Below are positions 2,056-47,274 of a DNA stretch of 64,000 nt, in pieces (the stretch's first letter is position 1; each line of letters starts with the position of its first letter). Under the pieces are notes generated by a model that was not told the origin of the DNA, did no database searches, and worked only from the letters and a program-made list of their open reading frames with translations. This DNA is from a virus (lineage: Duplodnaviria; Heunggongvirae; Uroviricota; Caudoviricetes). Location: positions 40,465-104,464 of IMG/VR virus record IMGVR_UViG_3300028413_000003; one strand, 5' to 3'. The translations under genes and the position numbers were made by a program.

Positions 2056-4194
2056 ATGATTATTAACTCAGCGCCAGCAGACAAGGCAGTCTTTGGCGGA
2101 ATCACTAAGGTTAGTGAATTCAAGATCAAAAATAGCGCAAAGGCATTTGGTATTCTGTCAAGTGGTTTGTATGCAAACAAAATTCGAGCAATCATCCGAG
2201 AACTTAGCTGCAACGCAGTCGACAGTCATGTTGCAGCTGGAAAGCGCAACACACCATTTGATTTGCACTTACCGACAAGGCTCCAGCCGTACTTTGCAAT
2301 TCGCGATTATGGTATTGGCTTGAACCTCGATGATGTTACACACATCTACACCACTTACTTCGAAAGCACCAAAGCCGACAGTAATGACTTTATCGGCGCA
2401 CTAGGTCTTGGATCAAAGTCGCCATTTAGCTACACTGACAGCTTCACCGTTATTGCTATTAAAGACGGCGTCAAGGGCATTTTTAGTGCTTTTATCAACG
2501 ACGACGGTGTTCCGAGTGTTGCTGAGATGGGTGTGGAGAAAACAGACGAGCCGTCTGGTGTTGAAGTAAAATTTGCAGTAACTGACGCTGATGATTTCTG
2601 GCGCTTTAGTACAGAAGCCAAGTCTGTGTTTACATATTTCGATCTTGTGCCAAATCTAACCGGCACCGAAATAGAGTTTAACACGGTTGAATATGAAGGC
2701 AAATGTATTGTTGCCAACGTGTTTTCGCGTAATAGCCAGATGGCCTACGCCAAGTCTACTAACAATGCAATCATGGGCAACATTGCCTATCCGATTGAAA
2801 TTCCAAGCAGTGACCGAAAATTAGGTGACTTGAATTTTGTCAGCAACACTGGACTTGATATCAAATTTGAATTAGGCGAAATTGAATTCCAGGCAAGCCG
2901 AGAAGGACTTCAGTACACTGAATGCACTATTACTAAAATCAAAGCAAAATACAAAGAAATTGCTGATGCATTAGAAGTAACACTGATTGCGGAAATGAAA
3001 TCAATTGAAAACACGTGGGACCGAGTACAATTTTTGAGGAACAAGGCAAAAAACCAATTATGGAGCGGAGTGGTCCAGCACTATATTGACAACAACAAGA
3101 TTCCGTTCTTATTCGGAAATAGATACTATTACAACTCATCCATAAAATTAAATGTAGAAGACATTGCCAAAAAATTCAATGTTGTGTTGCGATCATTCTC
3201 AACAGCCAAAGGGTCTTACGCCAGCGGCGGACTGAGCAAAATTGCAACCGAGAAGAAGGCCGGGTATGGGGGTCTTTGGTTAGTGGAATGCTGCAAAGAT
3301 GTGTTGTTTATTAAAAACACCGACAATGCTCGCATGTGGGAACGCAGCAAATATCATGTCAAAATTGCTTATGAGAAAGGCAAGACGGCATTTGTAATTT
3401 TTGCAAAGAATGCAGACAAGCCAGTTGATGTTGCAGGGTTTTTGGCTGCCATTCACAATCCTCCGGAAAATCAGGTCATTGACGTTACTGATTTAACAAA
3501 GCCTGATACAGTTTCAAGAATGTCAGAAAAGATCACACTGCTTAAAATAGACACATGCCATTACAATAATTCCATGACGTGGAGCGAATGCACAATGTCT
3601 CCAGGAGACATGGATAATACTAAAATCTATTGCTATGTCCCTATTACAGGATTCAAAGGAATTTCTAAGGCAGGCAAAGACATCAATGTTAAGAATGTTT
3701 ACCGTGCCATGAAAGCAAGCGGTCATCCAAAACTGTCAACTGTTGCAATGTATGGGGTACGCAAGACTGATGTCGCCGCAGTAGAAGCTTTGCCTAATTG
3801 GGTGAGATATGAGGACCTTGTAGAAGAAGTACTGGGCGAACTTAAATCCGAAAATTTACTTAGCATGGTGCTTTCACGGGTTGACAAAGATAGAGAATCA
3901 ATCTATTATAATAAGAAGCTTGTTAACATGTTGGACGAAAAAAGTCCAATGCGAGCGTTTTGCAAAAAGCTTCCTGAAGTTCCTGTAGGAGGCGACCGCA
4001 GCTTGTTTGAGCTTTCAAACACAATCGAAAGCTCACTTAACTTAACACTGTTAGAAGAAACAGCGACCAAAGAAATCGAGGGGATCCGCAGTCGTTACTC
4101 AATGATACAACAAATGCAGCGCAGTAGGTACTACGACGAGACTATTGTTGCAGAATATATTAACCTCGTCGATCAACATAAAGGACTAACATAA
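2056..4194 (+). CDS. rIIA: rIIA-like protein with GHKL (Bergerat-fold) ATPase domain
   Basis: N-box IRELSCNAVDS, G1 box DYGIGL, G2 box GALGLGSKS; 712 aa (T4 rIIA 725 aa); immediately upstream of an unambiguous rIIB homologue. Confidence 0.8.
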   Translation: MIINSAPADKAVFGGITKVSEFKIKNSAKAFGILSSGLYANKIRAIIRELSCNAVDSHVAAGKRNTPFDLHLPTRLQPYFAIRDYGIGLNLDDVTHIYTTYFESTKADSNDFIGALGLGSKSPFSYTDSFTVIAIKDGVKGIFSAFINDDGVPSVAEMGVEKTDEPSGVEVKFAVTDADDFWRFSTEAKSVFTYFDLVPNLTGTEIEFNTVEYEGKCIVANVFSRNSQMAYAKSTNNAIMGNIAYPIEIPSSDRKLGDLNFVSNTGLDIKFELGEIEFQASREGLQYTECTITKIKAKYKEIADALEVTLIAEMKSIENTWDRVQFLRNKAKNQLWSGVVQHYIDNNKIPFLFGNRYYYNSSIKLNVEDIAKKFNVVLRSFSTAKGSYASGGLSKIATEKKAGYGGLWLVECCKDVLFIKNTDNARMWERSKYHVKIAYEKGKTAFVIFAKNADKPVDVAGFLAAIHNPPENQVIDVTDLTKPDTVSRMSEKITLLKIDTCHYNNSMTWSECTMSPGDMDNTKIYCYVPITGFKGISKAGKDINVKNVYRAMKASGHPKLSTVAMYGVRKTDVAAVEALPNWVRYEDLVEEVLGELKSENLLSMVLSRVDKDRESIYYNKKLVNMLDEKSPMRAFCKKLPEVPVGGDRSLFELSNTIESSLNLTLLEETATKEIEGIRSRYSMIQQMQRSRYYDETIVAEYINLVDQHKGLT

Positions 4195-5037: not shown

Positions 5038-5066
5038 TTGACAATAGTGTATGCTTGTGCTAATGT
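5038..5066 (+). promoter_or_regulatory. sigma70-like promoter TTGACA-N17-TAATGT
   Basis: -35 5038-5043, -10 5061-5066, 36 nt upstream of ATG 5103. Confidence 0.5.
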
Positions 5067-16667: not shown

Positions 16668-17933
16668 ATGGAAAGACATTTAGTAGGCGCCCCGGTACGA
16701 GATATGCGGCTGGGGCGTACTGTCGAAGACCGAGATTGGGTAGTAGTTGGTTCTACACCCGAGCAAATGCTAGCTGACGGTTTTGGACAAGTTGGTGCTG
16801 ATTTTCCTGTATTTTTGCATCCTGAGACCAATGAAGAATATGCACTTGCACGTCGCGAACATAAAACTGGCGAAGGTTACTTGGGATTCACCAGCGATTT
16901 TGGTACAGATGTTACACTGTTGGAAGACTTGGGCCAACGAGACTTAACTGTCAACAGCATGGCCATGCAGAAACTGACCGAAAGTGAATTTGCAATAGAC
17001 ACTGACACCAACGACAATTGGGCGTTCTTTGATCCATATGGTGGCTTGGAAGATTTAGAAGCAAAAGTCCTTCGGCACACCAGTGATGCATTTGCCGAAG
17101 ATCCTGTACGAGTATTGCGTCTGGCGAGATTTCGCGCCAGACTAGGTCCTGAGTGGACAGTTGCACCCGAAACAGTTGCAATGGTTTCAAAAATGGCCAA
17201 GTCCGGTGTTCTTAATGAACTAGTAAGTGAGCGTGTATGGAAAGAAACAAGAAGAGCACTAATGGAGCCTCATGCGCGCCTGTTTTTTGACACACTGTTG
17301 GAAACGGATGCCTTGCATGTGATTTTTCCCGAAGTGTACAAGCTAAAGACTGCACTAGAGGCGCGGCGATGGCACCCCGAAGGCGATGCGTACGAGCACA
17401 CAATGTTGGTACTAACTGCCGCAGTTGATTTTGGCTACGACCTAGAAACGCGATTTGCTGCACTGGTACACGACTTTGGCAAAGGTCTAACGCCTAGAGC
17501 AGCACTGCCCAAGCACTACGGCCATGAAGTCACAGGTGTTGCTGTTGTAGAAAGCTTTGCCAATAGGCTGTCTGTGCCTTCTAATATGCGCAACCGTGCG
17601 ATGAAGACCACAAGATTTCACATGCACATGCACAAGTTAGACTCGTTGAATCCAAAAACGTTTGTAAAAATGTTTACAGAAATGGATGCTTGGAGAAATC
17701 CAGAAGTTGTAGACTTGCTGCTAAGAGTAGGCGAGTGCGACGAACGCGGCAGACTAGGCTGTGAAAATGTAGATGTACAACATTTGCAGAAACTAAAGAA
17801 AGTATTTGATCAAGCTAAAAGAGTTAAGTTTGCTGAGGTATTTTCCAAAGGTGAAACCGATGGCGAAAAGATCAAGGGTGGCATGTATCGTGCTAGAATA
17901 CAAGTTGTTTCGGAGATTAACAAAGATGACTAA
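16668..17933 (+). CDS. cca: tRNA nucleotidyltransferase (CCA-adding enzyme) with HD domain
   Basis: N-terminal LVGAPVRDMRLGRTVEDRDWVVVG (pol-beta NTase head) and HD motif ALVHDFGKG; 421 aa. Confidence 0.85.
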   Translation: MERHLVGAPVRDMRLGRTVEDRDWVVVGSTPEQMLADGFGQVGADFPVFLHPETNEEYALARREHKTGEGYLGFTSDFGTDVTLLEDLGQRDLTVNSMAMQKLTESEFAIDTDTNDNWAFFDPYGGLEDLEAKVLRHTSDAFAEDPVRVLRLARFRARLGPEWTVAPETVAMVSKMAKSGVLNELVSERVWKETRRALMEPHARLFFDTLLETDALHVIFPEVYKLKTALEARRWHPEGDAYEHTMLVLTAAVDFGYDLETRFAALVHDFGKGLTPRAALPKHYGHEVTGVAVVESFANRLSVPSNMRNRAMKTTRFHMHMHKLDSLNPKTFVKMFTEMDAWRNPEVVDLLLRVGECDERGRLGCENVDVQHLQKLKKVFDQAKRVKFAEVFSKGETDGEKIKGGMYRARIQVVSEINKDD

Positions 17934-35938: not shown

Positions 35939-36013
35939 TCTCCCCGGCGCGCAAGGTGTGCGAGCTGACTGTTAATCAGTTGTAGTCTGGTTCGATTCCA
36001 GAGGGGAGAGCCA
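35939..36013 (+). tRNA. tRNA-Asn (anticodon GUU)
   Basis: Manual cloverleaf: acceptor TCTCCCC/GGGGAGA, loop CTGTTAA, T-loop TTCGATT, CCA encoded. Confidence 0.75.
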
Positions 36014-36352
36014 AATAACAAGAGCTTTGCAATGTATGACTTTCCTATATGGTTGTATTTGACCGCGACAATTTACCGAATAGTTGGTAATAGTGGCTAT
36101 ACATAAAAGTCTCAATCGAGACGTTGGATTGCAAATTCAATAACGGTACTAGATTAGTCGTTATCTAGTTAAATCGCCTGCTATGGTTGAGCCCACCACT
36201 TAGATAAGAGATTCATTGCAAAGTCCACTAAGGCTGTAAATACGAATCCGCTAAGTTAAACTATTGTTTGTTCCCCAAGGGTAGCAAACGCAAGCAGGTG
36301 TGCAAACACGGCAGTCTCATTGCGTAGCAACGGTGACACCTGCTATAAATAA

Positions 36353-36442
36353 GGACAGGTGCCTGAGAGGCCGAAAGGAACGGTTTGCTAAATCGTCGTA
36401 CCGGAAACGGTACCCAGGGTTCGAATCCCTGTCTGTCTGCCA
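36353..36442 (+). tRNA. tRNA-Ser (anticodon GCU), type II long variable arm
   Basis: Anticodon loop TTGCTAA, variable arm CGTACCGGAAACGGTAC, T-loop TTCGAAT, CCA encoded. Confidence 0.8.
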
Positions 36443-36529
36443 TAAATTAAAAGTTATTATGGGCCCACACACCAAACTGGTGCAACAGGTAGGTCCTTTA
36501 GAAGTATAGTAATATACATCCACTAATAC

Positions 36530-36605
36530 GGGGGATTAGCTCATCTGGGAGAGCGCTACATTTGCAATGTAGAGGTGGTCGGGTCGGGACCGACATTCTC
36601 CACCA
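36530..36605 (+). tRNA. tRNA-Ala (anticodon UGC)
   Basis: G3:U70 pair present, loop TTTGCAA, CCA encoded. Confidence 0.8.
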
Positions 36606-36921
36606 ACAACGTTAGATTTGTGCCATGTAAACATAGTTGATGCCACAACAACTTAAGATACTGCATTGGACTGCCGGATAGACACCCCTTCTCGGGTTGC
36701 TCTGGCAGACACCACTTTATGCCTAACATAAGATACTCTCACTAAAGGATGCATACATTGCCTTGGTGAGGAAAGGAAGGTTATGCCCTTCCTGAGAGAT
36801 TAGGGGTTAGCTTAGTTGGGGTATTTAATAATCCTAACGATGCTGCTATAGCAAATAACTGTTTAAGAAAAACAATATACAATTGAGTCAACAGTAACAA
36901 AGTTTTTAACTATCTAAAAAT

Positions 36922-36996
36922 AGTTCGGTAGCTCAAAGGAAGAGCGTTGGTGTTACATACCAAAGGTTGAGATTTCAAAATTCTCTCGGACTACCA
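36922..36996 (+). tRNA. tRNA-Val (anticodon UAC)
   Basis: Acceptor AGTTCGG/TCGGACT, loop GTTACAT, T-loop TTCAAAA (one T-stem mismatch), CCA encoded. Confidence 0.65.
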
Positions 36997-37426
36997 GATC
37001 CCCTACCAGACACAGTGCGCTTGAGATGCCTCACTGTTTAAACATCAGAAGCATTCCGCGTAGCGCAGTACAGCCAGATTGTAAAGATCAAGTAGTACAC
37101 GATAGGCAGCGGCTATCAAAATATTAGAGTTAGGTGTTTAGTCTACGCACTAAACACCCAAGTGGTGGGAAAGAATAGGCGTCAATTGCTAGGCATAGAC
37201 GTGATAAAGTTTGCTTTTAACATATAATGTTTTAAGCATTGGGTCCTATTCAAACAGAATATCCTAGCTTGATTACAGGCGACAACTTGTAATCAAGTGA
37301 CACAACATAGTTCATTGCGTTGTCGCGCAGAAAGCACGCTTGGCTCACACCCAAGAAGATCGGAAATTGGATGACCGAGCTGCGTTCGGCGCAGTGTAGT
37401 GTAAATGTTGGATTGTAATTTTATAT

Positions 37427-37502
37427 GCGGGCGTAGCTCAGTGGTAGTAGCGTTAGTTTTCCAAACTAAATGTCGTCGGTTCGATCCCGATCGCCCGCTC
37501 CA
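37427..37502 (+). tRNA. tRNA-Gly (anticodon UCC)
   Basis: Acceptor GCGGGCG/CGCCCGC, loop TTTCCAA, CCA encoded. Confidence 0.8.
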
Positions 37503-37910
37503 AATAACCCGACCGTATGTGATTTATTATCAAGCAATAAATTATTCACTACGGCGTTACAGTGATCCGTGTGAGGCAATGTATATAATGCAAGGACTCC
37601 GTGATCAATCACTGTTTGAACATCACTTGTCTGAGACTGCAAAGATTGGACCACCTAAGCCGTAAGGTAAACCTGGAACGATAGTATATGGTGTCCAGCA
37701 AGTGTGTATTATTTTTGGTATCCACCGTGGCGTCAAATGTTATGACATAGGGCAGGTGGACGAAGAGACAGCATGTTAGACTGCCAAAATTAACATAGGC
37801 ATACGGGATAGCAAAGAGTAAGAAAGCGACGCATTGCATGAGCGATGTTTGTCACCTCGGAATCCATGGGGACCGCAAGGATACACTTACCGCCTAGCTT
37901 TAATAATAAC

Positions 37911-37987
37911 GCCGTTGTAGCTCAGTCCGGTAGAGCAGTTCCCTTGTAAGGAAAAGGTCGAGGGTTCAAATCCTTCCTGCGGCACCA
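37911..37987 (+). tRNA. tRNA-Thr (anticodon UGU)
   Basis: D-arm GCTCAGTCCGGTAGAGC, loop CTTGTAA, T-loop TTCAAAT, CCA encoded; one acceptor mismatch. Confidence 0.65.
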
Positions 37988-37993
37988 GATTAT

Positions 37994-38087
37994 GCACGGA
38001 GATATAGGCAATTGGAAGCCTTGAATCCATAAGAGGCAGCGGGTGATCCTTTACTGCCAAATGCAAGTTCGAATCTTGCCCTGTGCT
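37994..38087 (+). tRNA. tRNA-like element, anticodon arm unresolved
   Basis: Canonical T-arm GCAAG-TTCGAAT-CTTGC and acceptor GCACGGA/CCTGTGC (6 of 7 bp), but 94 nt long with a 5-bp stem closing a 14-nt loop. Confidence 0.3.
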
Positions 38088-38237
38088 CCTAATTACAGCA
38101 AGTTAAGCTAAAGGTGAAGCAGGCCGCGGAAGGGGCTGATCAAGTGATATTAGTAAGTGGGGATATTAGCTATAAGTCCATTGAAAATGCAATCATTTAT
38201 ATACGGATCGTTACCGTAGCTTGCTACTTACAAGAGG

Positions 38238-38266
38238 TTGACAACACTGTGCAGAAATGCTAGTAT
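38238..38266 (+). promoter_or_regulatory. sigma70-like promoter TTGACA-N17-TAGTAT
   Basis: Upstream of ORF 38294. Confidence 0.5.
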
Positions 38267-38293
38267 AAGTTAACAACAACAAAGAGGCTTACA

Positions 38294-38608
38294 ATGAATA
38301 CGGTTAGTATTAACGGCGTTACATACACTTCAAAAACTGGAGACGTGTCGGTAACGAGAGATGTAATTACAATCAACGGTGAAGAAATTCACGCAACTGG
38401 AATTGTAGAGATACGAGTACTAGAAGGTGTTATTAATAATTTAACATCCAGTGCATCTGTTAATTGCACAACAGTCAACGGCGACATTAAAGCCAGCGGT
38501 AGTGTTAGAAGTGATGATGTCGGCGGCAATGTTAAAGCTGGTGGAAGTGTTAGATGTGACAACGTCGGCGGTTCGGTCAAAGCTGGTGGCAGTGTACGTC
38601 ACTCATGA
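38294..38608 (+). CDS. bactofilin-like repeat protein
   Basis: Repeats GDIKASGSVRSDDVGGNVKAGGSVRCDNVGGSVKAGGSVR. Confidence 0.4.
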   Translation: MNTVSINGVTYTSKTGDVSVTRDVITINGEEIHATGIVEIRVLEGVINNLTSSASVNCTTVNGDIKASGSVRSDDVGGNVKAGGSVRCDNVGGSVKAGGSVRHS

Positions 38609-38615
38609 AGAATAT

Positions 38616-38690
38616 GTCGCGTTAGCAAAATGGTAATGCGCTGCCCTGCAAAGGTAGAAGTTGGTGGTTCGATTCCTCAACGCGACTCCA
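38616..38690 (+). tRNA. tRNA-Cys (anticodon GCA)
   Basis: Acceptor GTCGCGT/ACGCGAC, loop CTGCAAA, CCA encoded; weak T-stem. Confidence 0.65.
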
Positions 38691-38819
38691 AAATACGCAA
38701 GGCTAAGCAGCTGGTGCACCTGTCTGCTTTAAACCTTTGCCAGCTTCGGGTAGGAATGGGATTAATGCGTATCCATTATCCCCGAAGCGACTATAAACAA
38801 CAAACTAGGTAGGCACACT

Positions 38820-39206
38820 ATGAACAGCACAGAACATTGTAAAAGTTTTATTGCAACTATTATCAAAGATAATCCTAGCATTGTCCTTTCGATTTACGGC
38901 ATCGTTTTTGAAGCTGAATTTCTTAGTAAGTTGGTCACGGATGCAACAGCACCTAACAAATGGAAACGTGAATATAAATGCAAGCCTGGTGGCGGGTTAC
39001 AAGCGTTTGATGAATATTCTATGTTTAGCAAAGACGTTACAATTTCCAGAATGGGATATGATAGAATGCCAAAACGAGATGTATCTGACTTTATATCCGA
39101 GAGAGGGTTCTGCCTTGCACCAGACACATACGAAGACAGTGTTGCATTTGTAGTGTTAGAAGATCATAATGGTATCCTTCACTTAGGTGATTACATAGGA
39201 GACTAA
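38820..39206 (+). CDS. hypothetical protein
   Basis: 128-aa ORF within tRNA island. Confidence 0.45.
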   Translation: MNSTEHCKSFIATIIKDNPSIVLSIYGIVFEAEFLSKLVTDATAPNKWKREYKCKPGGGLQAFDEYSMFSKDVTISRMGYDRMPKRDVSDFISERGFCLAPDTYEDSVAFVVLEDHNGILHLGDYIGD

Positions 39207-39431
39207 AAAGAATTTGTATAGTGTAGACGGTCATGCGTGAATTCGCAAAGCACACTCCGTAGGCAATTGCAGCGGGAAGCCCAGACTTTATGAGAACCTG
39301 GTACAAATAGTAAATGTAGTGGCTGTTAACGCCACGGAATGACTGCCGGTCTATATTGGACTATAGCAGCAATCCTATTGTTAACAGCTACTACTTTTAA
39401 TTTAACTCTAACCCAATCAAAAAGGCGCTCA

Positions 39432-39617
39432 ATGAAAATCAAATACAATCAACTTGCTGACTTAATGGACTACATTGACACACAGTCTGATCATATTAAT
39501 GATGCTGCTATGACTAAATTAGAGGGACGCCTAGGCAAAAAAGAAGTCAAGCGCATGCGTAGGCTATATAAGAAAATGTCTGACAAGCTCGACGACGCGC
39601 AATACACTATTAATTAA
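39432..39617 (+). CDS. hypothetical small protein, paralog of 39658..39990
   Basis: MKIKYNQLADLMDYID...GKKEVKRMRRLYKKM versus MKIKRKELRDMLNHIN...GKKQVKRINKMLKKM. Confidence 0.4.
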   Translation: MKIKYNQLADLMDYIDTQSDHINDAAMTKLEGRLGKKEVKRMRRLYKKMSDKLDDAQYTIN

Positions 39618-39657
39618 AATACGGTATCAACTTTTAACTGTAACTCAAGAGGCTATT

Positions 39658-39990
39658 ATGAAAATCAAACGCAAAGAACTTCGAGACATGCTGAATCACA
39701 TCAATGATCAAGATGTCTATATCACTGATGATCATCGGTGCGAGATGGAAGAAGAAATGGGTAAAAAACAAGTCAAACGTATCAACAAGATGCTCAAAAA
39801 AATGGGCAAGAAGTTGACTTCAACACCAACAATTGTATTCATGTCTGCATCAGGCAACAGATACCTTATTAATGCTGCCACATATGAAGCAGATGTAGCA
39901 GCATATCAAGCCGCGCTCGATGCAGGTGATGAAATCACAATGGACGCTTTTGAAACAGGTAGCACAGGCTGGATTTGCGCTCCTGAATAA
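39658..39990 (+). CDS. hypothetical small protein, paralog of 39432..39617
   Basis: See paralog. Confidence 0.45.
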   Translation: MKIKRKELRDMLNHINDQDVYITDDHRCEMEEEMGKKQVKRINKMLKKMGKKLTSTPTIVFMSASGNRYLINAATYEADVAAYQAALDAGDEITMDAFETGSTGWICAPE

Positions 39991-40092
39991 TTTGCGGTAG
40001 TACGAATGCTACATTAAAAAAATCTCAATATGAATTGAGGTTCTAGAGATACAGTAAAACGAGTCTTGTTTAAATAGAAAGTATTTGAATAT

Positions 40093-40177
40093 GCGGGCGT
40101 GGTGGAATTGGCAGACACATCACGTTTAGGTCGTGACACCGCAAGGTTTGGGAGTTCGAGTCTCCCCGCCCGTACCA
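40093..40177 (+). tRNA. tRNA-Leu (anticodon UAG), type II
   Basis: Acceptor GCGGGCG, loop TTTAGGT, long variable arm, T-loop TTCGAGT, CCA encoded. Confidence 0.75.
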
Positions 40178-40199
40178 AATACAATACGCGCCGCGTGGT

Positions 40200-40454
40200 A
40201 TGAAGTTTACTACACATAAATATAAGTACCATCAACAAGGAGACGGTATTATGAATTTTTTAAAAGGTTACAGAACAGTTATTTTCAACATAGCATTATT
40301 TGTTGCAAGCTTGGTCGAAATTGTTGGAATAGTTGATATACTTGCGCCTGGCGCAAGCGCAAGTATTATTCTAGCAGTAAGCATTGCTAACTTGGTGCTG
40401 AGATATATGACAGACACAACAGTTGGCACAAGTACGCAACACGAAACATTATAA
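40200..40454 (+). CDS. hypothetical small membrane protein
   Basis: 84 aa; two hydrophobic helices. Confidence 0.4.
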   Translation: MKFTTHKYKYHQQGDGIMNFLKGYRTVIFNIALFVASLVEIVGIVDILAPGASASIILAVSIANLVLRYMTDTTVGTSTQHETL

Positions 40455-40460
40455 GAACAT

Positions 40461-40535
40461 TGGAGGACGTAGCAGAATGGCGATGCATCAGACTTTGAAT
40501 CTGATTTTTGGGAGGTTCGATTCCTTCTCCTCCAG
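40461..40535 (+). tRNA. tRNA-Gln (anticodon UUG), copy 1
   Basis: Acceptor TGGAGGA/TCCTCCA, stem TCAGA/TCTGA, loop CTTTGAA; 3' CCA not fully encoded. Confidence 0.6.
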
Positions 40536-40661
40536 CCCTAGAATTCCTTAGCTAGTCAAGGAAAGAACATTTAATCGGTGCAGCAAGCTTTTACTCCTAC
40601 CGAAGAGCAGTATCTTAAAGATATACGGACTGCCTTGTGTTGTGGAATTTTATAAGAATAT

Positions 40662-40737
40662 TGGTCAGTAGCTCAATTGGTAGAGCATCTGTTTTTGGTA
40701 CAGAAGGTTGTAGGTTCGAATCCTACCCGACCATCCA
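40662..40737 (+). tRNA. tRNA-Gln (anticodon UUG), copy 2
   Basis: D-arm GCTCAATTGGTAGAGC, stem TCTGT/ACAGA, loop TTTTGGT, CCA encoded. Confidence 0.55.
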
Positions 40738-41039
40738 GCATTTTAGTTAGTCGAAGCTATAAGTTAAACGCGGATTAAATTATCCGCTAAGAGATCGAAA
40801 GTCACCGCGTTAGGGGGCAACGAAAGACCCATACTGAAAGACCGGGCGGCAGCGCCGGGAGAGCAGAGTGGAACCAGTGTGTAACATGTTGCAAAGCGTA
40901 AAAACCGTGAACTAGGGCAGGGCTAGGCAGGCACACTGGCAAAGCGAAGTAAACCTGGCAGGAAAGCAGGGACACTACTGTATAGCGATGTCGGAAGAAA
41001 CTAACGTAGGAACGGACGAGCAGTAGTTATGTAGAATAA

Positions 41040-41106
41040 TGGTAGTTCGCCGGACGCCTTGCAGCATTTGGAACCGGAGGTAGAAGTTCGAATCTTCTCG
41101 TAAATA
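41040..41106 (+). tRNA. tRNA-like fragment (good T-arm only)
   Basis: AGAAG-TTCGAAT-CTTCT T-arm at 41082-41098; no convincing acceptor or anticodon pairing. Confidence 0.2.
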
Positions 41107-41110
41107 CTTG

Positions 41111-41139
41111 TTGACACGCTCAACTAAATACTGTACAGT
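41111..41139 (+). promoter_or_regulatory. sigma70-like promoter TTGACA-N17-TACAGT
   Basis: Internal promoter of tRNA island, upstream of tRNA-Pro. Confidence 0.5.
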
Positions 41140-41213
41140 CAATGTATAAAACAGTTTTAGGTGCCGAAGCTATTAATAACGGAGTATGGCGCAGTTCGCT
41201 AACTTCAAATATA

Positions 41214-41292
41214 CGGAGTATAGCGCAGTCTGGTTTAGCGCATCTGCTTTGGGAGCAGAGGGTCGAAGGTTCGAATCCTTCTACTCCGACCA
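41214..41292 (+). tRNA. tRNA-Pro (anticodon UGG)
   Basis: Acceptor CGGAGTA/TACTCCG, loop TTTGGGA, CCA encoded; preceded by a degenerate copy of its own 5' end at 41180-41208. Confidence 0.8.
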
Positions 41293-41457
41293 AAACAACT
41301 TAGTATGACATTAGGAACAGAAAATTATTGTCGGTGAGCGTAGGACGCAGATGGGTCTCCAAAACCCAAAAGGTAGATTTCGATTATCTCCGCCGATGCC
41401 AACAAATACAGAAGTGCAGTGTGAACTCAAAAATCGACTCCTCTTTCGCTAAACAAC

Positions 41458-41531
41458 GCCCCCGGAGCATGACGGTTATGCATCGGCTTCTAACCCCGCG
41501 TATATGGGTTCAAATCCCATTGGGGGCACCA
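41458..41531 (+). tRNA. tRNA with anticodon CUA (amber-suppressor-like) or pseudogene
   Basis: Perfect acceptor GCCCCCG/TGGGGGC, D-arm GCAT-GACGGTT-ATGC, T-arm ATGGG-TTCAAAT-CCCAT, CCA encoded; anticodon loop TTCTAAC but only 3 of 5 anticodon-stem pairs. Confidence 0.45.
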
Positions 41532-41707
41532 ATTTGTTACAACCTCTGAGCCGTTGATTGATTCTAGATAAGAAATCAACTAAGTTGATAACAATTCGAC
41601 CTAAACAGTAGTTATTAACGACTTGTCGCAAAACTGTATTCAACCTTAGCAGTATGGCTGAAGCCTGTTGTAAAAATGCTATCGAAACAACAATGGAGAT
41701 ATACATA

Positions 41708-42178
41708 ATGCGGTCCTTAGAATACTCGGCGATATCCGATTATTATAAAGATGATATCACTGATCGAAGCGGCGTCAAATTAATGAACCACATCGATGAA
41801 GGTATTGAAATTCTCAACCAACTAGGCGCGACCCCGGCTGCAATTGCAGCATATTGTCTGCATCCAATTTTTCAAAATGATGCAGACTTAACAAAAAACG
41901 TTGCAGCGATCAAACTGTTTGACCCGTATGTAATTATGCTAACCATGGAATATCGTCGTACAGCTAACTCGTACCTATGCAGGCCAGGCACAGATGATTT
42001 TACACTTGATGACATTTGCCGAGTTGTTGGACTGTTGTTGCCCGAAGTAAAAGATATGTTGATTGCTGACAAGAAGCAAAATTCCAAAGACTTTATGCTG
42101 TATCATTACGGCGTACACAAACGAACAACGCAGTTGCACCAGTATTTTAAAAACTGGTGCAACTTGCTCAACTGCTAA
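41708..42178 (+). CDS. hypothetical protein (possible HD-like hydrolase)
   Basis: NHIDEGIEILNQLGA...AAYCLHP; tentative. Confidence 0.35.
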   Translation: MRSLEYSAISDYYKDDITDRSGVKLMNHIDEGIEILNQLGATPAAIAAYCLHPIFQNDADLTKNVAAIKLFDPYVIMLTMEYRRTANSYLCRPGTDDFTLDDICRVVGLLLPEVKDMLIADKKQNSKDFMLYHYGVHKRTTQLHQYFKNWCNLLNC

Positions 42179-42334
42179 TCGAACAAGGGTTTGTAGTAAA
42201 GGCAACAATCCTGAAACCCTGCGACGCAAGTCAATACCCATTAAGATCGTCAGTTAGGTTGCCATAATATAAATAATTAAAAGACATATAACAGGAGAGA
42301 AATAATGTCATAGGTAGAAATAGCATGCAAAGAT

Positions 42335-42862
42335 TTGGTGTTCCACTTTAACAAAGGACACCTAACAGACCCAACCATCCCAATGTGGGCTGTGAAAACC
42401 AAGGGCCAGACATTTTACGTCGACCACGTGACTTGTGAATTGCCATGGAGCACAAAAGAAACTCCGGACAATCCAGGCACCAAGGGCAGCATCAAAATCA
42501 AGAGATGTTTACTTACCATTGGCAACGATAACTGTGCTGAGATTACAACACTCACCGAGGATGATGCAGAAAGACTAAGCGGTAAAAAACGGGTCAACCG
42601 CATAATCACGTCAGCTGGTTACAAGCTTAAAGAATTTTTAAAAGGTCGGGCCCATGGCTCAATTCATTGCTTCGGTGGCGGATGTGGCACAGCTTGGCAT
42701 GTAACTGAAATCAGTGACAGAACATTGCTGCTGGCACAACTGGTATTACCAGATGTGAGAGTTTTGATGCCCAACGAATATTACTACAAAGCATATGACA
42801 CAGGTGGCAGTAGCCAGGAGATCGACCTGGATGATGAATTTGATGATTTCTATGAAAATTGA
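42335..42862 (+). CDS. hypothetical protein with acidic C-terminus
   Basis: 175-aa ORF. Confidence 0.45.
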   Translation: MVFHFNKGHLTDPTIPMWAVKTKGQTFYVDHVTCELPWSTKETPDNPGTKGSIKIKRCLLTIGNDNCAEITTLTEDDAERLSGKKRVNRIITSAGYKLKEFLKGRAHGSIHCFGGGCGTAWHVTEISDRTLLLAQLVLPDVRVLMPNEYYYKAYDTGGSSQEIDLDDEFDDFYEN

Positions 42863-43035
42863 AATAGGACATCGGCATCTCAAATTTCTTATTGGAGTTA
42901 TTGGGCGATTTAAAATGCGGCATGGACCGTTTCACAAATTGCCCAATACTTATCGTATGTTCATATATACTAATAGATACGATAGTTTGTTTCTACTAAC
43001 ATTATCAGATACAGATATGAGTATTATCAAATAAC

Positions 43036-43110
43036 GCGGGTGTAGCTCAGGGGTAGAGCATTTGGTTGCCAATCAAAATGTCGAGAGTTCGAATCTCTTC
43101 ACCCGCTCCA
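43036..43110 (+). tRNA. tRNA-Gly (anticodon GCC)
   Basis: Acceptor GCGGGTG/CACCCGC, loop TTGCCAA, CCA encoded. Confidence 0.8.
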
Positions 43111-43120
43111 AATTACCTAT

Positions 43121-43210
43121 GTCAGTATTGGTTAGGTTTAACCGGTGTGTGCTACTACAGGCGTTATAGCACAATTATCCAAGCAGGGTTCGATTCCCTC
43201 ACTGATACCA
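43121..43210 (+). tRNA. tRNA-like element (90 nt), anticodon unresolved
   Basis: Acceptor GTCAGTA/CACTGAT 6 of 7 bp, T-loop TTCGATT, CCA encoded; internal 6-bp stem GTGCTA/TAGCAC with 12-nt loop in place of a canonical anticodon arm. Confidence 0.3.
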
Positions 43211-43214
43211 AATT

Positions 43215-43288
43215 GCCCTCGTAGCTGAGTGGTTTAGCAACGGTTTAGTAATCCGTCGACGGGATTTCGATTCTCCCCGAGGGCACCA
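43215..43288 (+). tRNA. tRNA, anticodon ambiguous (AGU by position; degenerate)
   Basis: Perfect acceptor GCCCTCG/CGAGGGC, CCA encoded; anticodon loop TTAGTAA; mismatches at 31:39 and 53:61. Confidence 0.45.
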
Positions 43289-43337
43289 ACACATATCTCT
43301 AATGCTTCTGATAAATATATAAAACACATATCAGAAC

Positions 43338-43649
43338 ATGTCAGGAAGAGTATTATACGGAAAACACACTATGGCCACAGGTGCAACTGTTCTTGAAGCA
43401 GGCAGAATTAACCAAGGCGCAGCGTCAATAGCAATTGGTGCATTTACTGGACAGGACGCTCAAGCAGCAAATAGTATTGTCATTAATGCAACTGGTGGTG
43501 TGCTACAAAACACAGTTGAAGATATATTAGTCATCAAACCAGTTAGAGAAAACACCACAGGTACAGCACCAACTAGCACACTGCCCACAGGTTTCTTCTA
43601 CACTATTTACAATCCAACAACTGGAGAAATGGGATACTGGAACCCATAA
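43338..43649 (+). CDS. hypothetical Gly/Thr/Ala-rich protein
   Basis: 103-aa ORF. Confidence 0.4.
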   Translation: MSGRVLYGKHTMATGATVLEAGRINQGAASIAIGAFTGQDAQAANSIVINATGGVLQNTVEDILVIKPVRENTTGTAPTSTLPTGFFYTIYNPTTGEMGYWNP

Positions 43650-43785
43650 TATCACGTCAACCCTACTTTAGGCCCAGGGTTGTAAAATATCAGGCACTCT
43701 TGAAATCAAGTATGTGGCCCAGTCAGCAATGGCGGTAAGTTGTAAGCAGTCATAGACTGGAAATAAGCTTATTTCTAAAAAGTTA

Positions 43786-43814
43786 TTGACAGCGTTGTTA
43801 ACTAGTGCTATAGT
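43786..43814 (+). promoter_or_regulatory. sigma70 consensus promoter TTGACA-N17-TATAGT
   Basis: First of three tandem promoters heading a 1.4-kb ORF-free block. Confidence 0.6.
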
Positions 43815-43864
43815 GTTTATATAGAGTTAGTTAACACGTTGTTGATGATGCTTTTACAAATAAA

Positions 43865-43913
43865 ATTAAAGTAGTTGACACACTGTTAAACATGTGTTAC
43901 ACTGTTAGTAAGA
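43865..43913 (+). repeat. 49-bp promoter-containing repeat, copy 1
   Basis: About 90% identical to 44102-44150; contains TTGACA 43875-43880 and -10 TACACT 43898-43903. Confidence 0.8.
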
Positions 43914-44101
43914 AGTAAGCTGCTCTATTTGCAGAGTATAACACATACAGAACTATTGATTGCAGAGTCTCAGGGAAGTGTCATAGGAGAGTAAATAGGT
44001 CAAAACGACGAGTGGCAAGAATCTTATTCTTGTGTAATCACAAAATTCGAGCGGTTAACTTCCTACTTAAAGTATGAAACCAATGGTTTCATAGAACATA
44101 A

Positions 44102-44150
44102 ATTAAAGTAGTTGACACGCTGTTAAACATGTGTTACGCTGCTAGTAAGA
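44102..44150 (+). repeat. 49-bp promoter-containing repeat, copy 2
   Basis: Contains TTGACA 44112-44117 and -10 TACGCT 44135-44140. Confidence 0.8.
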
Positions 44151-44664
44151 ACTAAACGTACTAAAAAGATTTGCGGAGTGTAGTCCGCTTGCAACAGGCA
44201 TCCTCGGGTGTTTGTTGATAGGGTAGTCACAGCAATGTGATAAAAGGAAGTTTTCCTATAAACTTCCGCACTATAAGAGCTTGCTCTTATATTGTCCATC
44301 TATACAAGCCTGAGTTAACTGCAACCGACTAGTTCGTAGGTGCAGTCCGTCCGTAGAAAGGCGGTAGGCAGTAAGTTAGTATTATAGTCCGAAAGGATAT
44401 ACACGGAGCCGATCGGTGAGTGTTAATAGACTGTGGTGGTTTAGCTATGATGTACCAAACTAATGATTGCTGATTACTAACAGGTAGCTGCATAGTCTGA
44501 CCGTTCGCGCGGAAAGGCAACGCAGCATTACAAGAGTTGAAGGTTAATTAATATACCCAAGACTTGAAGTAAGGTTTATTAGCCCGCAAGGTGAAAAACA
44601 GATGATGTGTTGTATTTTGTATCTAACAAGGTATGAAGCAACAGGAGTAGCACATCATAGTAGG

Positions 44665-44734
44665 TTGCAAATAGCTCTCTGGTAGAGCAATTCCTTTTCT
44701 GGAATCGGTGTTGGTTCAAATCCAACTTTGATTA
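44665..44734 (+). tRNA. degenerate tRNA-like element (UUC-like anticodon region, 6-nt loop, broken acceptor)
   Basis: Good D-arm GCTC-TCTGGTA-GAGC and T-arm GTTGG-TTCAAAT-CCAAC, but acceptor pairs only 4 of 7 and no CCA. Confidence 0.3.
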
Positions 44735-45189
44735 AAATGCAAGAGTCTGCTCCAGTGTACTGTTAAAGACGCTTAATGCCATACTACCTAGTAGAATATG
44801 GCGCACAGAAGCTCGCAAGGCAGACGTGTTTGTTTGGAAATATAACGTCGGATCTTAGCGGATCCAAATAGCTCGCAAGGCTAACGTAGGATCGATAGAC
44901 GAGTAGCAGTATATGATGCGTGAAACGCCACACGCTAAAAAAGGCAGCGTTGGAAGATACATACATAAGCTGTCCGGCTGGTATGTGGATAACGGATTAA
45001 CTAACCTCGCAAGGATTACGGTAAGGTCCAAAGACTTCCATCCTAAGGTGTAATCTCAACCTAAGGAAACAAAGTTTGATACTTTTAATAAAGCAGTTGA
45101 TTAACACACTAAGCACTAACCCACATTGCTCGTATATGTAAATAGAGTAATGAAATATTCAGTAACTGTTTTTTTTAAATTGTCTTTAT

Positions 45190-45267
45190 GTCGCGGTAGA
45201 GCAGTCCGGTCAGCTCATTGGGTTCATACCTCAAAGGTCGTAGGTTCGAATCCTGCCCGCGCAACCA
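45190..45267 (+). tRNA. tRNA-Met/Ile2-type (anticodon CAU)
   Basis: Stem TTGGG/CTCAA, loop TTCATAC, T-loop TTCGAAT, CCA encoded; positions 1:72 and 2:71 unpaired. Confidence 0.55.
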
Positions 45268-45286
45268 ACTTTATAAAGGAAACTTT

Positions 45287-45928
45287 ATGTCAGATATTAA
45301 CATTAACGTAACTGCTGTCGCTGGAATGGGGAAGACTACTGTTACTGCTCTTCTATACAAATTTCTAAGTGAACATGGATTTGACGTTACTGTTGAGTTA
45401 GAGGATGAAATCAACGCATTAGAAACTCTTGCAAACAAAGAACGCATTCTGACAGTTGCGGCAAAAAGTTCAATCACAATCACTCAGACACAATTGGCAA
45501 GTTTGCCTCAATTACCATTGGAATCTACGATGAAAAATCTTAAAGATATGATCACTGACTTAGATGAGGAAATTAGTCGAGTCAAGCAGCTTGAAGCCAA
45601 AAATGGCTACCACCATGGTACAGCACAAAATGCTATTATGCGTCGTTACCGTACAGAGCTCACGGCGTTGGCTCGATTGATGAAAGATGATATTAATTTG
45701 AAAGGTCTTGTCGAGTACGATAACCGGACAACAGAAACCAAGGAAGACTACATGACAACAAGTTACAATACAAACAACCTTCCACTTGTTGCATTTCCAG
45801 ACATTGCAATTATTGAAATAGCGAACCTTGCTAACAAGCTGGGTGTTTTAGTTCACATTGATGGCATTCCGTTTGGTGATTGTAATCAATCATCTAGAAC
45901 CATTAAAGACGAACACAACGAAGATTAA
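45287..45928 (+). CDS. hypothetical P-loop protein
   Basis: Walker-A-like AVAGMGKTT; start moved to ATG 45287 (RBS aaagga) because track start lies inside the tRNA. Confidence 0.5.
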   Translation: MSDININVTAVAGMGKTTVTALLYKFLSEHGFDVTVELEDEINALETLANKERILTVAAKSSITITQTQLASLPQLPLESTMKNLKDMITDLDEEISRVKQLEAKNGYHHGTAQNAIMRRYRTELTALARLMKDDINLKGLVEYDNRTTETKEDYMTTSYNTNNLPLVAFPDIAIIEIANLANKLGVLVHIDGIPFGDCNQSSRTIKDEHNED

Positions 45929-45942
45929 TTTTAGGAAATAAT

Positions 45943-46128
45943 ATGCAAGTTAGAACTCCAGGAGTACATTGGGCGTGGTGGGTATTTTGGTTATTAGTAT
46001 TTTGGCCAGCATTGTTCCTTGTATGGATAACACACAAGAACGATGTTGATAGCTACAACCTTGAGCTCCAAAGAGAACTTGATAAGACACGCAAGAAGAA
46101 GAAGAGAAAAGCAATTGTTAGAGTTTAA
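45943..46128 (+). CDS. hypothetical small membrane protein
   Basis: WAWWVFWLLVFWPALFLVWI hydrophobic segment. Confidence 0.3.
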   Translation: MQVRTPGVHWAWWVFWLLVFWPALFLVWITHKNDVDSYNLELQRELDKTRKKKKRKAIVRV

Positions 46129-46726
46129 GCATACAGAACCACAAAACATTTCCGACCACATTGCGCTAGGGTTAACCAAAGTTTTTAGATGGTTTGCTGA
46201 TACCTTTTTTGCCAAACGTTATGGACACCGTGCTGTTGTACTTGAAACAGTTGCTGGTGTTCCTGGAATGGTTGCAGGAATGTGGAATCACCTAAGAAGT
46301 CTACGAAACATGGCGCCCGATGACCGAAAGTGGATCAAGGTGCTGCTGGACGAAGCAGAAAACGAACGCATGCACCTCATGATCTTTATTGAGATTGCAC
46401 AGCCTAGTCGCTTCGAAAGATGCTTGGTGTTGCTAGCACAATTTCTATTTTGGCATTTCTATTTTGTAATGTACGCTCTGTTTCCAAAAACTGCACATCG
46501 ACTGGTAGGATACTTTGAAGAAGAAGCTGTTATAAGTTATACTCAGTATCTTGCAGAAATTGATGTGGGCACAGTCGAAAACGTGCCTGCGCCACAAATT
46601 GCAATTGATTATTACAAGTTAAGCCAATCCGCAACACTAAGAGACGTTGTACTCAAGGTAAGAGCAGACGAACAAGGTCACTCAGAAACAAACCATCAGA
46701 TGGCCAATGAATTACTTAGTCGTTGA
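46043..46726 (+). CDS. plastoquinol terminal oxidase / alternative oxidase (PTOX/AOX); start uncertain
   Basis: Di-iron motifs LETVAGVPGMV, NERMHL, EEEA, RADEQGH. Confidence 0.8.
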   Translation: MLIATTLSSKENLIRHARRRREKQLLEFKHTEPQNISDHIALGLTKVFRWFADTFFAKRYGHRAVVLETVAGVPGMVAGMWNHLRSLRNMAPDDRKWIKVLLDEAENERMHLMIFIEIAQPSRFERCLVLLAQFLFWHFYFVMYALFPKTAHRLVGYFEEEAVISYTQYLAEIDVGTVENVPAPQIAIDYYKLSQSATLRDVVLKVRADEQGHSETNHQMANELLSR

Positions 46727-46751
46727 CACATCACAAGAAATGTGTTAAATT
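46723..46751 (+). promoter_or_regulatory. sigma70-like promoter TTGACA-N17-TAAATT
   Basis: -10 ends 7 nt before ATG 46758. Confidence 0.35.
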
Positions 46752-46757
46752 GCTTTT

Positions 46758-47024
46758 ATGGATCAAAAGTTAAAACAGTTTGAAGAATGGGAACAGGAGA
46801 TTGCAAAGTGGCACAAGTACCACAGAGGCACATCTCCCGGAACAACCACACTGATTAAAAAGCGTTTTGAAAAATACAAACTTGATTACTTTAGATTAAC
46901 AACAGAATACAGACAGACCAAGAAAAAGAGCGTGTTACTTGCCTCGGAAAAAATATTCGCTACAGCAGAAGCAGAATTCAAAAGATTCAAAAGACTTGAA
47001 TTTTTAGGAACTCTTGGTAAATAA
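46758..47024 (+). CDS. hypothetical protein
   Basis: 88-aa ORF. Confidence 0.4.
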   Translation: MDQKLKQFEEWEQEIAKWHKYHRGTSPGTTTLIKKRFEKYKLDYFRLTTEYRQTKKKSVLLASEKIFATAEAEFKRFKRLEFLGTLGK

Positions 47025-47033
47025 CAGTAATAC

Positions 47034-47125
47034 GGAGAGGTGGCCGAGTCTGGCTTAAGGCACCGCACTTGAAATGCGACGAACTTTAACGAGTTCCCAG
47101 GGTTCGAATCCCTGCCTCTCTGCCA
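47034..47125 (+). tRNA. tRNA-Ser (anticodon UGA), type II
   Basis: Acceptor GGAGAGG/CCTCTCT, loop CTTGAAA, variable arm GAACT-TTAACG-AGTTC, CCA encoded. Confidence 0.8.
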
Positions 47126-47198
47126 AGATAAAACTACGTTGTGAACCCTTTAGTGTAAGCATAGCAACATGCCTGAAATGGGCAGCACAACGTAAAAT

Positions 47199-47274
47199 GG
47201 GGATGTAGCTCAATTGGTAGAGCAGTGGATTGTCTATCCGAAGGCTGCGAGTTCAAATCTCGTCATTCTCGCCA
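47199..47274 (+). tRNA. tRNA-Asp (anticodon GUC)
   Basis: D-arm GCTCAATTGGTAGAGC, loop TTGTCTA, T-loop TTCAAAT, CCA encoded. Confidence 0.65.

Follow-up and report, generated by a model that had tools for sequence, protein, structure and literature searches.

An ORF-free block in the tRNA array of an environmental phage is very probably a copy of the giant non-coding RNA GOLLD

The stretch of DNA analyzed here, hereafter the window, comprises 64,000 nucleotides (nt) from a virus of the Caudoviricetes (positions 40,465 to 104,464 of the IMG/VR record IMGVR_UViG_3300028413_000003), and it belongs to a large phage, with genes that include rIIA/rIIB, a CCA-adding-type nucleotidyltransferase (16668-17933), NAMPT, and an ATP-dependent DNA ligase. 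Mid-way in a plus-strand array of 16 transfer RNA (tRNA) genes (35939-47274, as called by ARAGORN) lies a 1.5-kb block free of open reading frames (ORFs), bounded on the left by the end of a 103-residue ORF at 43649 and on the right by tRNA-Met (45190-45267), the gene that had been predicted to come next in line. The original prediction, made from the letters of the sequence, read this block as a promoter-driven region encoding structured RNA beside the tRNA cluster, and the present analysis bears that out: the block encodes, with high confidence, a phage member of GOLLD, an established family of giant non-coding RNAs, and not a new ribozyme. Coding capacity is slight, as had been claimed, with no ORF of at least 25 residues on the plus strand of 43655-44236, and only short ones (27-46 residues on the plus strand, 58-63 residues on the minus strand) inside the RNA.

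The GOLLD family (RF02032) is reportedly to be attributed to Weinberg et al. in 2009. Its RNAs are often longer than 800 nt, occur in phages and prophages near tRNA islands, and combine a conserved 3' domain with a variable 5' domain, with phage tRNAs sometimes occupying the linker (PMC12286853). When the whole window was scanned with Rfam at the gathering threshold, the sole match other than tRNAs was GOLLD, at 44602-45062 on the plus strand (178.6 bits, gathering score 150; E 1.5e-48), which spans model positions 1-416 of 416 and is untruncated. The parts of the RNA and its downstream neighbour are as follows:

44195-44601, plus strand: GOLLD 5' domain, a multi-helix fold with 24 consensus helices
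44602-45062, plus strand: GOLLD 3' domain, the universally conserved half (Rfam RF02032)
44668-44730, plus strand: tRNA-like module within the variable linker of GOLLD (40.3 bits to Rfam tRNA, model positions 4-67)
45190-45267, plus strand: tRNA-Met (CAT), outside the RNA and within its conserved context

This copy retains hairpins where the model places the 3'-domain loops, and the three CTCGCAAGG motifs (44812, 44872, 45006), which had been listed as hairpins, are indeed hairpin loops of the GOLLD 3' domain. An Rfam scan for group I introns, transfer-messenger RNA (tmRNA), RNase P, and 6S had been proposed as a check; in a permissive version covering 43600-45300 (E up to 1), none of these and no ribozyme was matched, and the scan returned GOLLD, tRNA-Met, the tRNA-like match at 44668-44730, and nothing else. 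Alongside the 3'-domain score, the locus presents a structured 5' domain of about 400 nt, a variable linker with a tRNA-like insert, and a tRNA-adjacent location in a phage. As estimated from conservation, the RNA would extend from about 44195 to 45065, or from about 44147 if it is started at promoter P3 (described below), for a size of about 870-920 nt, with a probable 3' end at about 45062-45069, where conservation stops.

The Rfam GOLLD model covers the 3' domain only, and 44150-44601 was therefore tested separately as a 5' domain. When IMG/VR was searched with the conserved 3' terminus, 47 loci were recovered. For four of them (L016, L020, L023, and L010), the alignment with the window covers 44347 to about 45069 (70-77% identity); each of the four carries an Rfam GOLLD match of 186-195 bits within a tRNA array, and L020 and L023 have the same gene order as the window, namely tRNA-Gly(gcc), tRNA-Thr(agt), GOLLD, and tRNA-Met. 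A second scan, with a 5'-domain motif (window 44387-44420), gave 50 environmental phage loci, and the window together with 35 of these made up the 36 unique full-length sequences to which the comparisons below refer, unless another number is given. Conservation relative to the window begins at about 44200-44217 and ends at about 45065. Searches elsewhere added nothing closer: metagenome scans gave no match to the duplicated promoter sequence, and ten loci with a subclade pattern, none above 77% identity; genome contigs gave no match to the 5' motif and 106 to a 16-nt 3' motif, most of them expected by chance at the database size and none with this 5' domain.

Covariation across related phages, which had also been proposed as a check, is pervasive. 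RNAalifold applied to the 5' domains (alignment A2) yielded 102 base pairs, 77 of them with compensatory double changes. Paired cells amount to 98.7% in the consensus structure vs. 32-40% when the partner is slid by one to three columns, the covariation score is 0.599 vs. 0.05-0.075 in the slid controls, and none of 500 shuffles matched the observed values. The window itself fits 93 of the 102 consensus pairs; its exceptions are the first hairpin, which is replaced by a hairpin of its own at 44195-44214, and a one-nucleotide register shift at 44326-44336, and it also has a long version of one 5'-domain helix (44271-44295) that is specific to it. An nhmmer profile of the same alignment matches the 5' domain of a cultured roseophage, DSS3_MAL1 (E 1e-17), as well as several weaker GOLLD loci. 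Judged from these alignments, 44195-44601 is the GOLLD 5' domain, of a subtype common to the 50 environmental phage contigs.

This consensus also sorts the individual hairpins that had been picked out by eye. The hairpins CCGTC/GGCGG (44347-44351 with 44360-44364) and GCC-CGCAA-GGT (44582-44584 with 44590-44592) are conserved helices, and TCC-GAAA-GGA (44388-44397) is conserved and invariant. The hairpin proposed for cgcggaaaggcaacgc did not survive: what is conserved at this place is CCG-TTCGCG-CGG (44501-44512), enclosed by the helices 44495-44498/44515-44518 and 44487-44491/44522-44526.

A GACTA/TAGTC pair resembling the P7 core of group I ribozymes had been noted in this region, and could point to a self-splicing intron (group I or another) or to a ribozyme. 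GNRA-type loops are abundant here, and the two strings do exist as a 5-base-pair (bp) complementarity (GACTA at 44327-44331, TAGTC at 44385-44389), but their pairing is contradicted by covariation, which gives both of them other partners: 44380-44388 pairs with 44444-44452 (helix 13) with compensatory changes in 7 of 9 pairs, and 44326-44328 pairs locally with 44334-44336. In addition, GACTA is not conserved among the relatives, no interrupted or split host gene is evident, and no intron or ribozyme family appears in the permissive scan described above. An intron core consequently has next to no probability.

The linker carries the tRNA-like module, which falls inside the unaligned variable stretch of the GOLLD model and is composed as follows:

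44668-44671 with 44727-44730: acceptor stem, 4 bp only
44674-44677 with 44685-44688: D stem
44690-44694 with 44701-44705: anticodon stem
44695-44700: anticodon loop, 6 nt (TTTTCT)
44710-44714 with 44722-44726: T stem
44715-44721: T loop (TTCAAAT)

The module keeps an intact D arm, anticodon stem, and T arm; the 7-bp acceptor stem, 7-nt anticodon loop, and CCA-capable 3' end of a canonical tRNA are absent, and ARAGORN calls no tRNA gene at 44668-44730. The element had been described as a degenerate tRNA-like one at 44665, and the block as possibly no more than tRNA debris. Its tRNA-like nature is upheld, and its status as debris is not, as it is an insert in the GOLLD linker that is present in 32 of the 36 sequences, and its cloverleaf is kept by covariation among these 32 relatives (94.9% paired vs. 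33-46% when slid; score 0.53).

These data also bear on whether the whole region is debris from degenerate tRNAs, or else a functionless spacer in the tRNA cluster. The tRNA-derived element that fails as a canonical tRNA would fit that explanation, but conservation extends over some 870 nt in dozens of divergent phage contigs, with compensatory changes throughout, the tRNA-like element itself retains its cloverleaf, and a dedicated promoter is conserved upstream. Debris or spacer is refuted for 44195-45065 and, as an account of the block, is extremely improbable; it is possible for 43660-44100 and 45063-45189, for which no homologue was found.

The conservation of the module does not extend to its anticodon. 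Among the 32 sequences, the anticodon loop occurs in 15 variants (TCT nine times, CTT seven times, then TAG, TGA, GCT, TAT, ATG, and TTT), four modules have loops of 8 nt, U33 is invariant, and the mismatches G3-A70 and C2-U71 are common across the clade. Two sequences with no more than 2 differences in 60 body positions can still show 2-5 in the loop. Near-identical bodies with differing anticodons were observed in L010, L049, L054, L065, L072, L073, L078, L084, and L092; the modules of L010 (TAG) and L049 (CTT), for instance, have one body difference and five loop differences (alignment A3, columns 62-69). Positive selection on the anticodon loop was considered and set aside: the unpaired spacer 3' of the module varies no less than the loop does, so relaxed constraint suffices. 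Nor was an intramolecular kissing partner for the anticodon found, as no triple of GOLLD columns tracks it and the mutual-information peaks all lie inside the loop.

A different proposal would make the embedded element a genuine tRNA that is stored in GOLLD and cut out for translation. DSS3_MAL1 has an annotated tRNA-Arg at this site (Rfam model positions 1-71), in L094 the module has CCA after an acceptor stem of 7 bp, and the phage in the window encodes the CCA-adding-type enzyme; in addition, "inhibited storage" of an embedded tRNA-Phe, in a Mycolicibacterium GOLLD, has been proposed in a review (PMC12990946). Some relatives thus appear to have complete tRNAs at the linker site, with the window's copy at the degenerate end of the range. 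Against storage stand the window's 4-bp acceptor stem, 6-nt anticodon loop, missing CCA, and rejection by ARAGORN, as well as the loop variants, 8-nt loops, and common acceptor mismatches among the relatives, and excision of a working tRNA from this RNA seems very unlikely. A further, speculative proposal is that the linker element of this GOLLD subtype is a permanently tethered, non-decoding tRNA mimic, of which caged copies would bait a tRNA-recognizing factor. It is based on the conserved elbow, D and T arms, and U33, combined with an acceptor stem of 4-5 bp and an anticodon triplet that drifts freely, and the decoy's target could be a host anticodon nuclease, another tRNA-targeting defence, RNase P, or the phage's CCA-adding enzyme. 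We regard this mimicry as improbable; if true, it would supply the first concrete molecular role for GOLLD.

Upstream of the RNA are three promoters, and the claim that they begin at 43786, 43875, and 44112 is correct: a TTGACA -35 box starts at each position, and each is 17 nt from a TGn-extended -10 box (TATAGT, TACACT, and TACGCT, respectively). The features of this region are:

43786-43814, plus strand: promoter P1, TTGACA, 17-nt spacer, TG-extended TATAGT (11 of 12 consensus matches)
43796-43836: imperfect inverted repeat across the -10 box and start site of P1, with arms of 17 nt that are 82% complementary
43863-43918, plus strand: direct repeat copy 1, containing promoter P2 (TTGACA at 43875, 17-nt spacer, TACACT ending at 43903)
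44100-44155, plus strand: direct repeat copy 2, containing promoter P3 (TTGACA at 44112, 17-nt spacer, TG-extended TACGCT ending at 44140)

A strict promoter scan reports only the first two and misses the one at 44112 because its -10 box, TACGCT, has only three of six matches. P2 and P3 had been placed in a duplicated element of 49 bp; the duplication is real, and its length is 56 nt with 93% identity between the copies. The fold of 43650-43870 has a z-score of -4.2, and the inverted repeat at P1 is possibly an operator or a 5' hairpin. Similarity was found between the P1 region (43764-43824) and the stretch containing the GOLLD promoter in L016 (73.8% over 61 nt, E 0.015). For P3, a five-way alignment pairs it with a TTGACA-N17-TAnnnT promoter just upstream of GOLLD in L016, L020, and L023, and in 12 of the 50 related loci, a P3-type promoter precedes the 5'-domain motif by 235-275 nt. 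By its conserved position upstream of GOLLD among relatives, P3 is the predicted proximal GOLLD promoter, and the start site derived from it would be at about 44147. About 28 near-identical promoters (TTGACA, 16-18 nt, TGnTAnnnT) occur on the plus strand of the window, e.g., at 5038, 13287, 22291, 27929, 35406, and 48137, spaced at roughly one per 2.3 kb, with two on the minus strand; this one-directional family looks like a uniform set of host RNA polymerase promoters for the region. The P1-P3 type is accordingly the phage's ordinary sigma-70-type promoter, and three within 330 bp is a local cluster, with one member derived from the duplication. The terminator scan predicted no intrinsic terminator between P1 and the RNA, so all three promoters may feed one gene.

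The leader between the left end of the block and P3, and the tail beyond the RNA, contain two further features:

43908-44100, plus strand: ORF-free stretch of 193 nt between the repeat copies (minimum free energy -48.5 kcal/mol, z = -3.2)
45170-45177, plus strand: weak stem with a T8 run behind it; no other terminator candidate lies between GOLLD and tRNA-Met, and this one is unconvincing

The fold of 43908-44100 combines an 18-nt long-range stem (43908-43925 with 44050-44067) with a terminal 9-bp hairpin (44074-44092). Two strong promoters upstream of P3, this structure with its closing hairpin, and the lack of ORFs of at least 25 residues would suit one or more separate small stable RNAs, made from P1 and P2, extending to 44100, and analogous to the RNAs of the T4 tRNA cluster. 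On the other side, 43660-44100 has no homologue among the approximately 200 viral, metagenome, and genome loci fetched, nor among GenBank phages, and covariation therefore cannot be assessed there; when 43289-44200 and 45063-45189 were compared with all fetched loci, only promoter-like fragments were found (E 0.015 or worse). No intrinsic terminator is predicted before GOLLD, so P1 and P2 transcripts may be longer GOLLD precursors, and the promoter duplication may be a recent accident. A separate small RNA is therefore doubtful, and 43660-44100 may also be read as the leader of longer GOLLD precursors or as recent duplication junk. The tail at 45063-45189 is unconserved and unstructured (z = -0.3); the terminator scan found none between GOLLD and tRNA-Met, and, the T8 run being unconvincing, read-through into tRNA-Met is possible.

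Several observations weigh against the identification of the block as GOLLD, or limit how far it reaches. The columns under the search motif (44387-44420) are invariant by construction, and the covariation falls outside the motif. The A2 nhmmer profile does not detect the 5' domain of env-38, the structurally solved member, of which the copy searched was incomplete (815 of 833 nt). Both ends of the RNA are inferred, and 43660-44100 is not explained by GOLLD. Cage assembly and expression would carry over to this RNA by analogy with other GOLLD members, and the conserved promoter is what suggests expression here.

Identified as GOLLD, the locus has in hand a conserved promoter P3 (44112-44140) directly upstream, P1 and P2 further up, and 5' and 3' domains joined by the linker module. 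From what is seen in other GOLLD members, the RNA would fold without protein and, by means of kissing loops and A-minor contacts, would self-assemble into a closed homo-oligomeric cage in which the 5' domains would form the caps and the 3' domains the ring; the linker would point into the cavity, and the tRNA-like module would then lie inside the cage. That the RNA serves tRNA- or translation-related biology in lytic growth, either by holding or presenting the module or by enclosing a tRNA-binding partner, is a tentative suggestion and less probable than not.

Several features around the RNA deserve description in their own right. Megablast of the block and 24 kb around it, aimed at close phage relatives in GenBank, gave only tRNA-sized matches, and the nearest relative of the rIIA gene is that of Ruegeria phage RpAliso, a related roseophage (30.6% identity). 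Two further Rfam tRNAs on the plus strand (41025-41106, 42.6 bits; 41458-41528, 44.8 bits) are not reported by ARAGORN, and the number of genes in the cluster may be 18 instead of 16, unless the additional pair is atypical. The plus-strand ORFs flanking the block (43338-43649, 103 residues; 45287-45928, 213 residues) have no PHROG match and no Pfam match above the curated cut-off, and an IMG/VR pattern search with the 213-residue downstream protein, for synteny in viral contigs, gave no relatives. Within the tRNA cluster, a 227-residue plus-strand ORF (46043-46726) encodes an alternative oxidase (Pfam AOX, 275.5 bits, E 3.9e-82), which is an unusual auxiliary metabolic gene for a phage other than the cyanophages. 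Finally, an excess of G over C on the plus strand (skew +0.10 to +0.17) runs throughout 43600-45200 and falls to about zero once coding resumes, a pattern that fits the sense strand of a G-U-rich structured RNA.

With this assignment, an unexplained gap of 1.5 kb becomes a named gene, and a full-length GOLLD is added from a phage without a close cultured relative. The mapped promoter can be reused, as can the covariation-supported structure for a widespread 5'-domain subtype that is unlike, in sequence, the one solved by cryo-electron microscopy (cryo-EM), and the 32 orthologous linker modules, in which the tRNA-like bodies are conserved and the anticodons are not. Comparison of these modules bears on the purpose of the cage and on whether embedded tRNAs are cargo, stored tRNAs, or mimics, although it gives no answer yet.

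Among known systems, the small stable RNAs of phage T4 are non-coding and linked to the phage tRNA cluster, as is the RNA in the window. The original prediction had proposed a counterpart of these RNAs; instead, the window's RNA is single, approximately 0.9 kb in length, and a member of a different, identifiable family, with no homology shown to the T4 RNAs. ROOL has in common with the window's RNA a phage tRNA-island niche and a large ornate fold, and published ROOL forms an RNA-only cage (PMC12286853; PMC5737381). ROOL is unrelated to GOLLD in sequence and fold, and the Rfam scans of the window gave no ROOL match.

The closest cultured comparison is with the roseophages DSS3_MAL1 (MN602268) and Phaeobacter phage MD18 (MT270409), the only GenBank phages with DNA similarity to the block (about 70% over 44578-44907, by distant blastn). 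The GenBank records of both have no GOLLD feature under the match, only a tRNA-Arg. DSS3_MAL1 nonetheless scores 160.5 bits as GOLLD, with a tRNA at the same linker position and the related 5' domain noted above. Unlike the window, where the insert is shortened and has a 6-nt loop, both roseophages have an insert annotated as a full tRNA-Arg, and directly downstream of GOLLD in DSS3_MAL1 is tmRNA, in the place of the window's tRNA-Met. In the DSS3_MAL1 locus (L001), GOLLD and the tmRNA, which is of a permuted, alphaproteobacterial type, occupy 3027-3490 and 3548-3964, and a nucleotidyltransferase gene about 1 kb further on parallels the window's CCA-adding-type enzyme.

The structural reference is env-38 GOLLD, which has 833 nt, a 5' domain at 1-420, and a 3' domain at 421-833, and was solved by cryo-EM (PDB 9MEE; Kretsch et al., 2025, PMC12286853). 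It forms a closed D7 14-mer cage, 380 Å across, with a disordered linker facing the interior (PMC12286853), and other members form 8-, 10-, and 12-mers (2026 review, PMC12990946). GOLLD expression rises during phage lysis, and the biological function is unknown for any member (PMC12286853). The window's RNA differs from env-38 in its 5' domain, which has no detectable sequence similarity to the env-38 copy, and cap geometry and stoichiometry may therefore differ; it differs also in its linker, which holds a tRNA-like module where env-38 has a 42-nt disordered loop. In common with env-38 and the family at large, it has a two-domain layout with a variable linker, a length of approximately 0.9 kb, recurrent hairpin loops of the CGCAA type, and a place in a phage tRNA array, here beside tRNA-Met.

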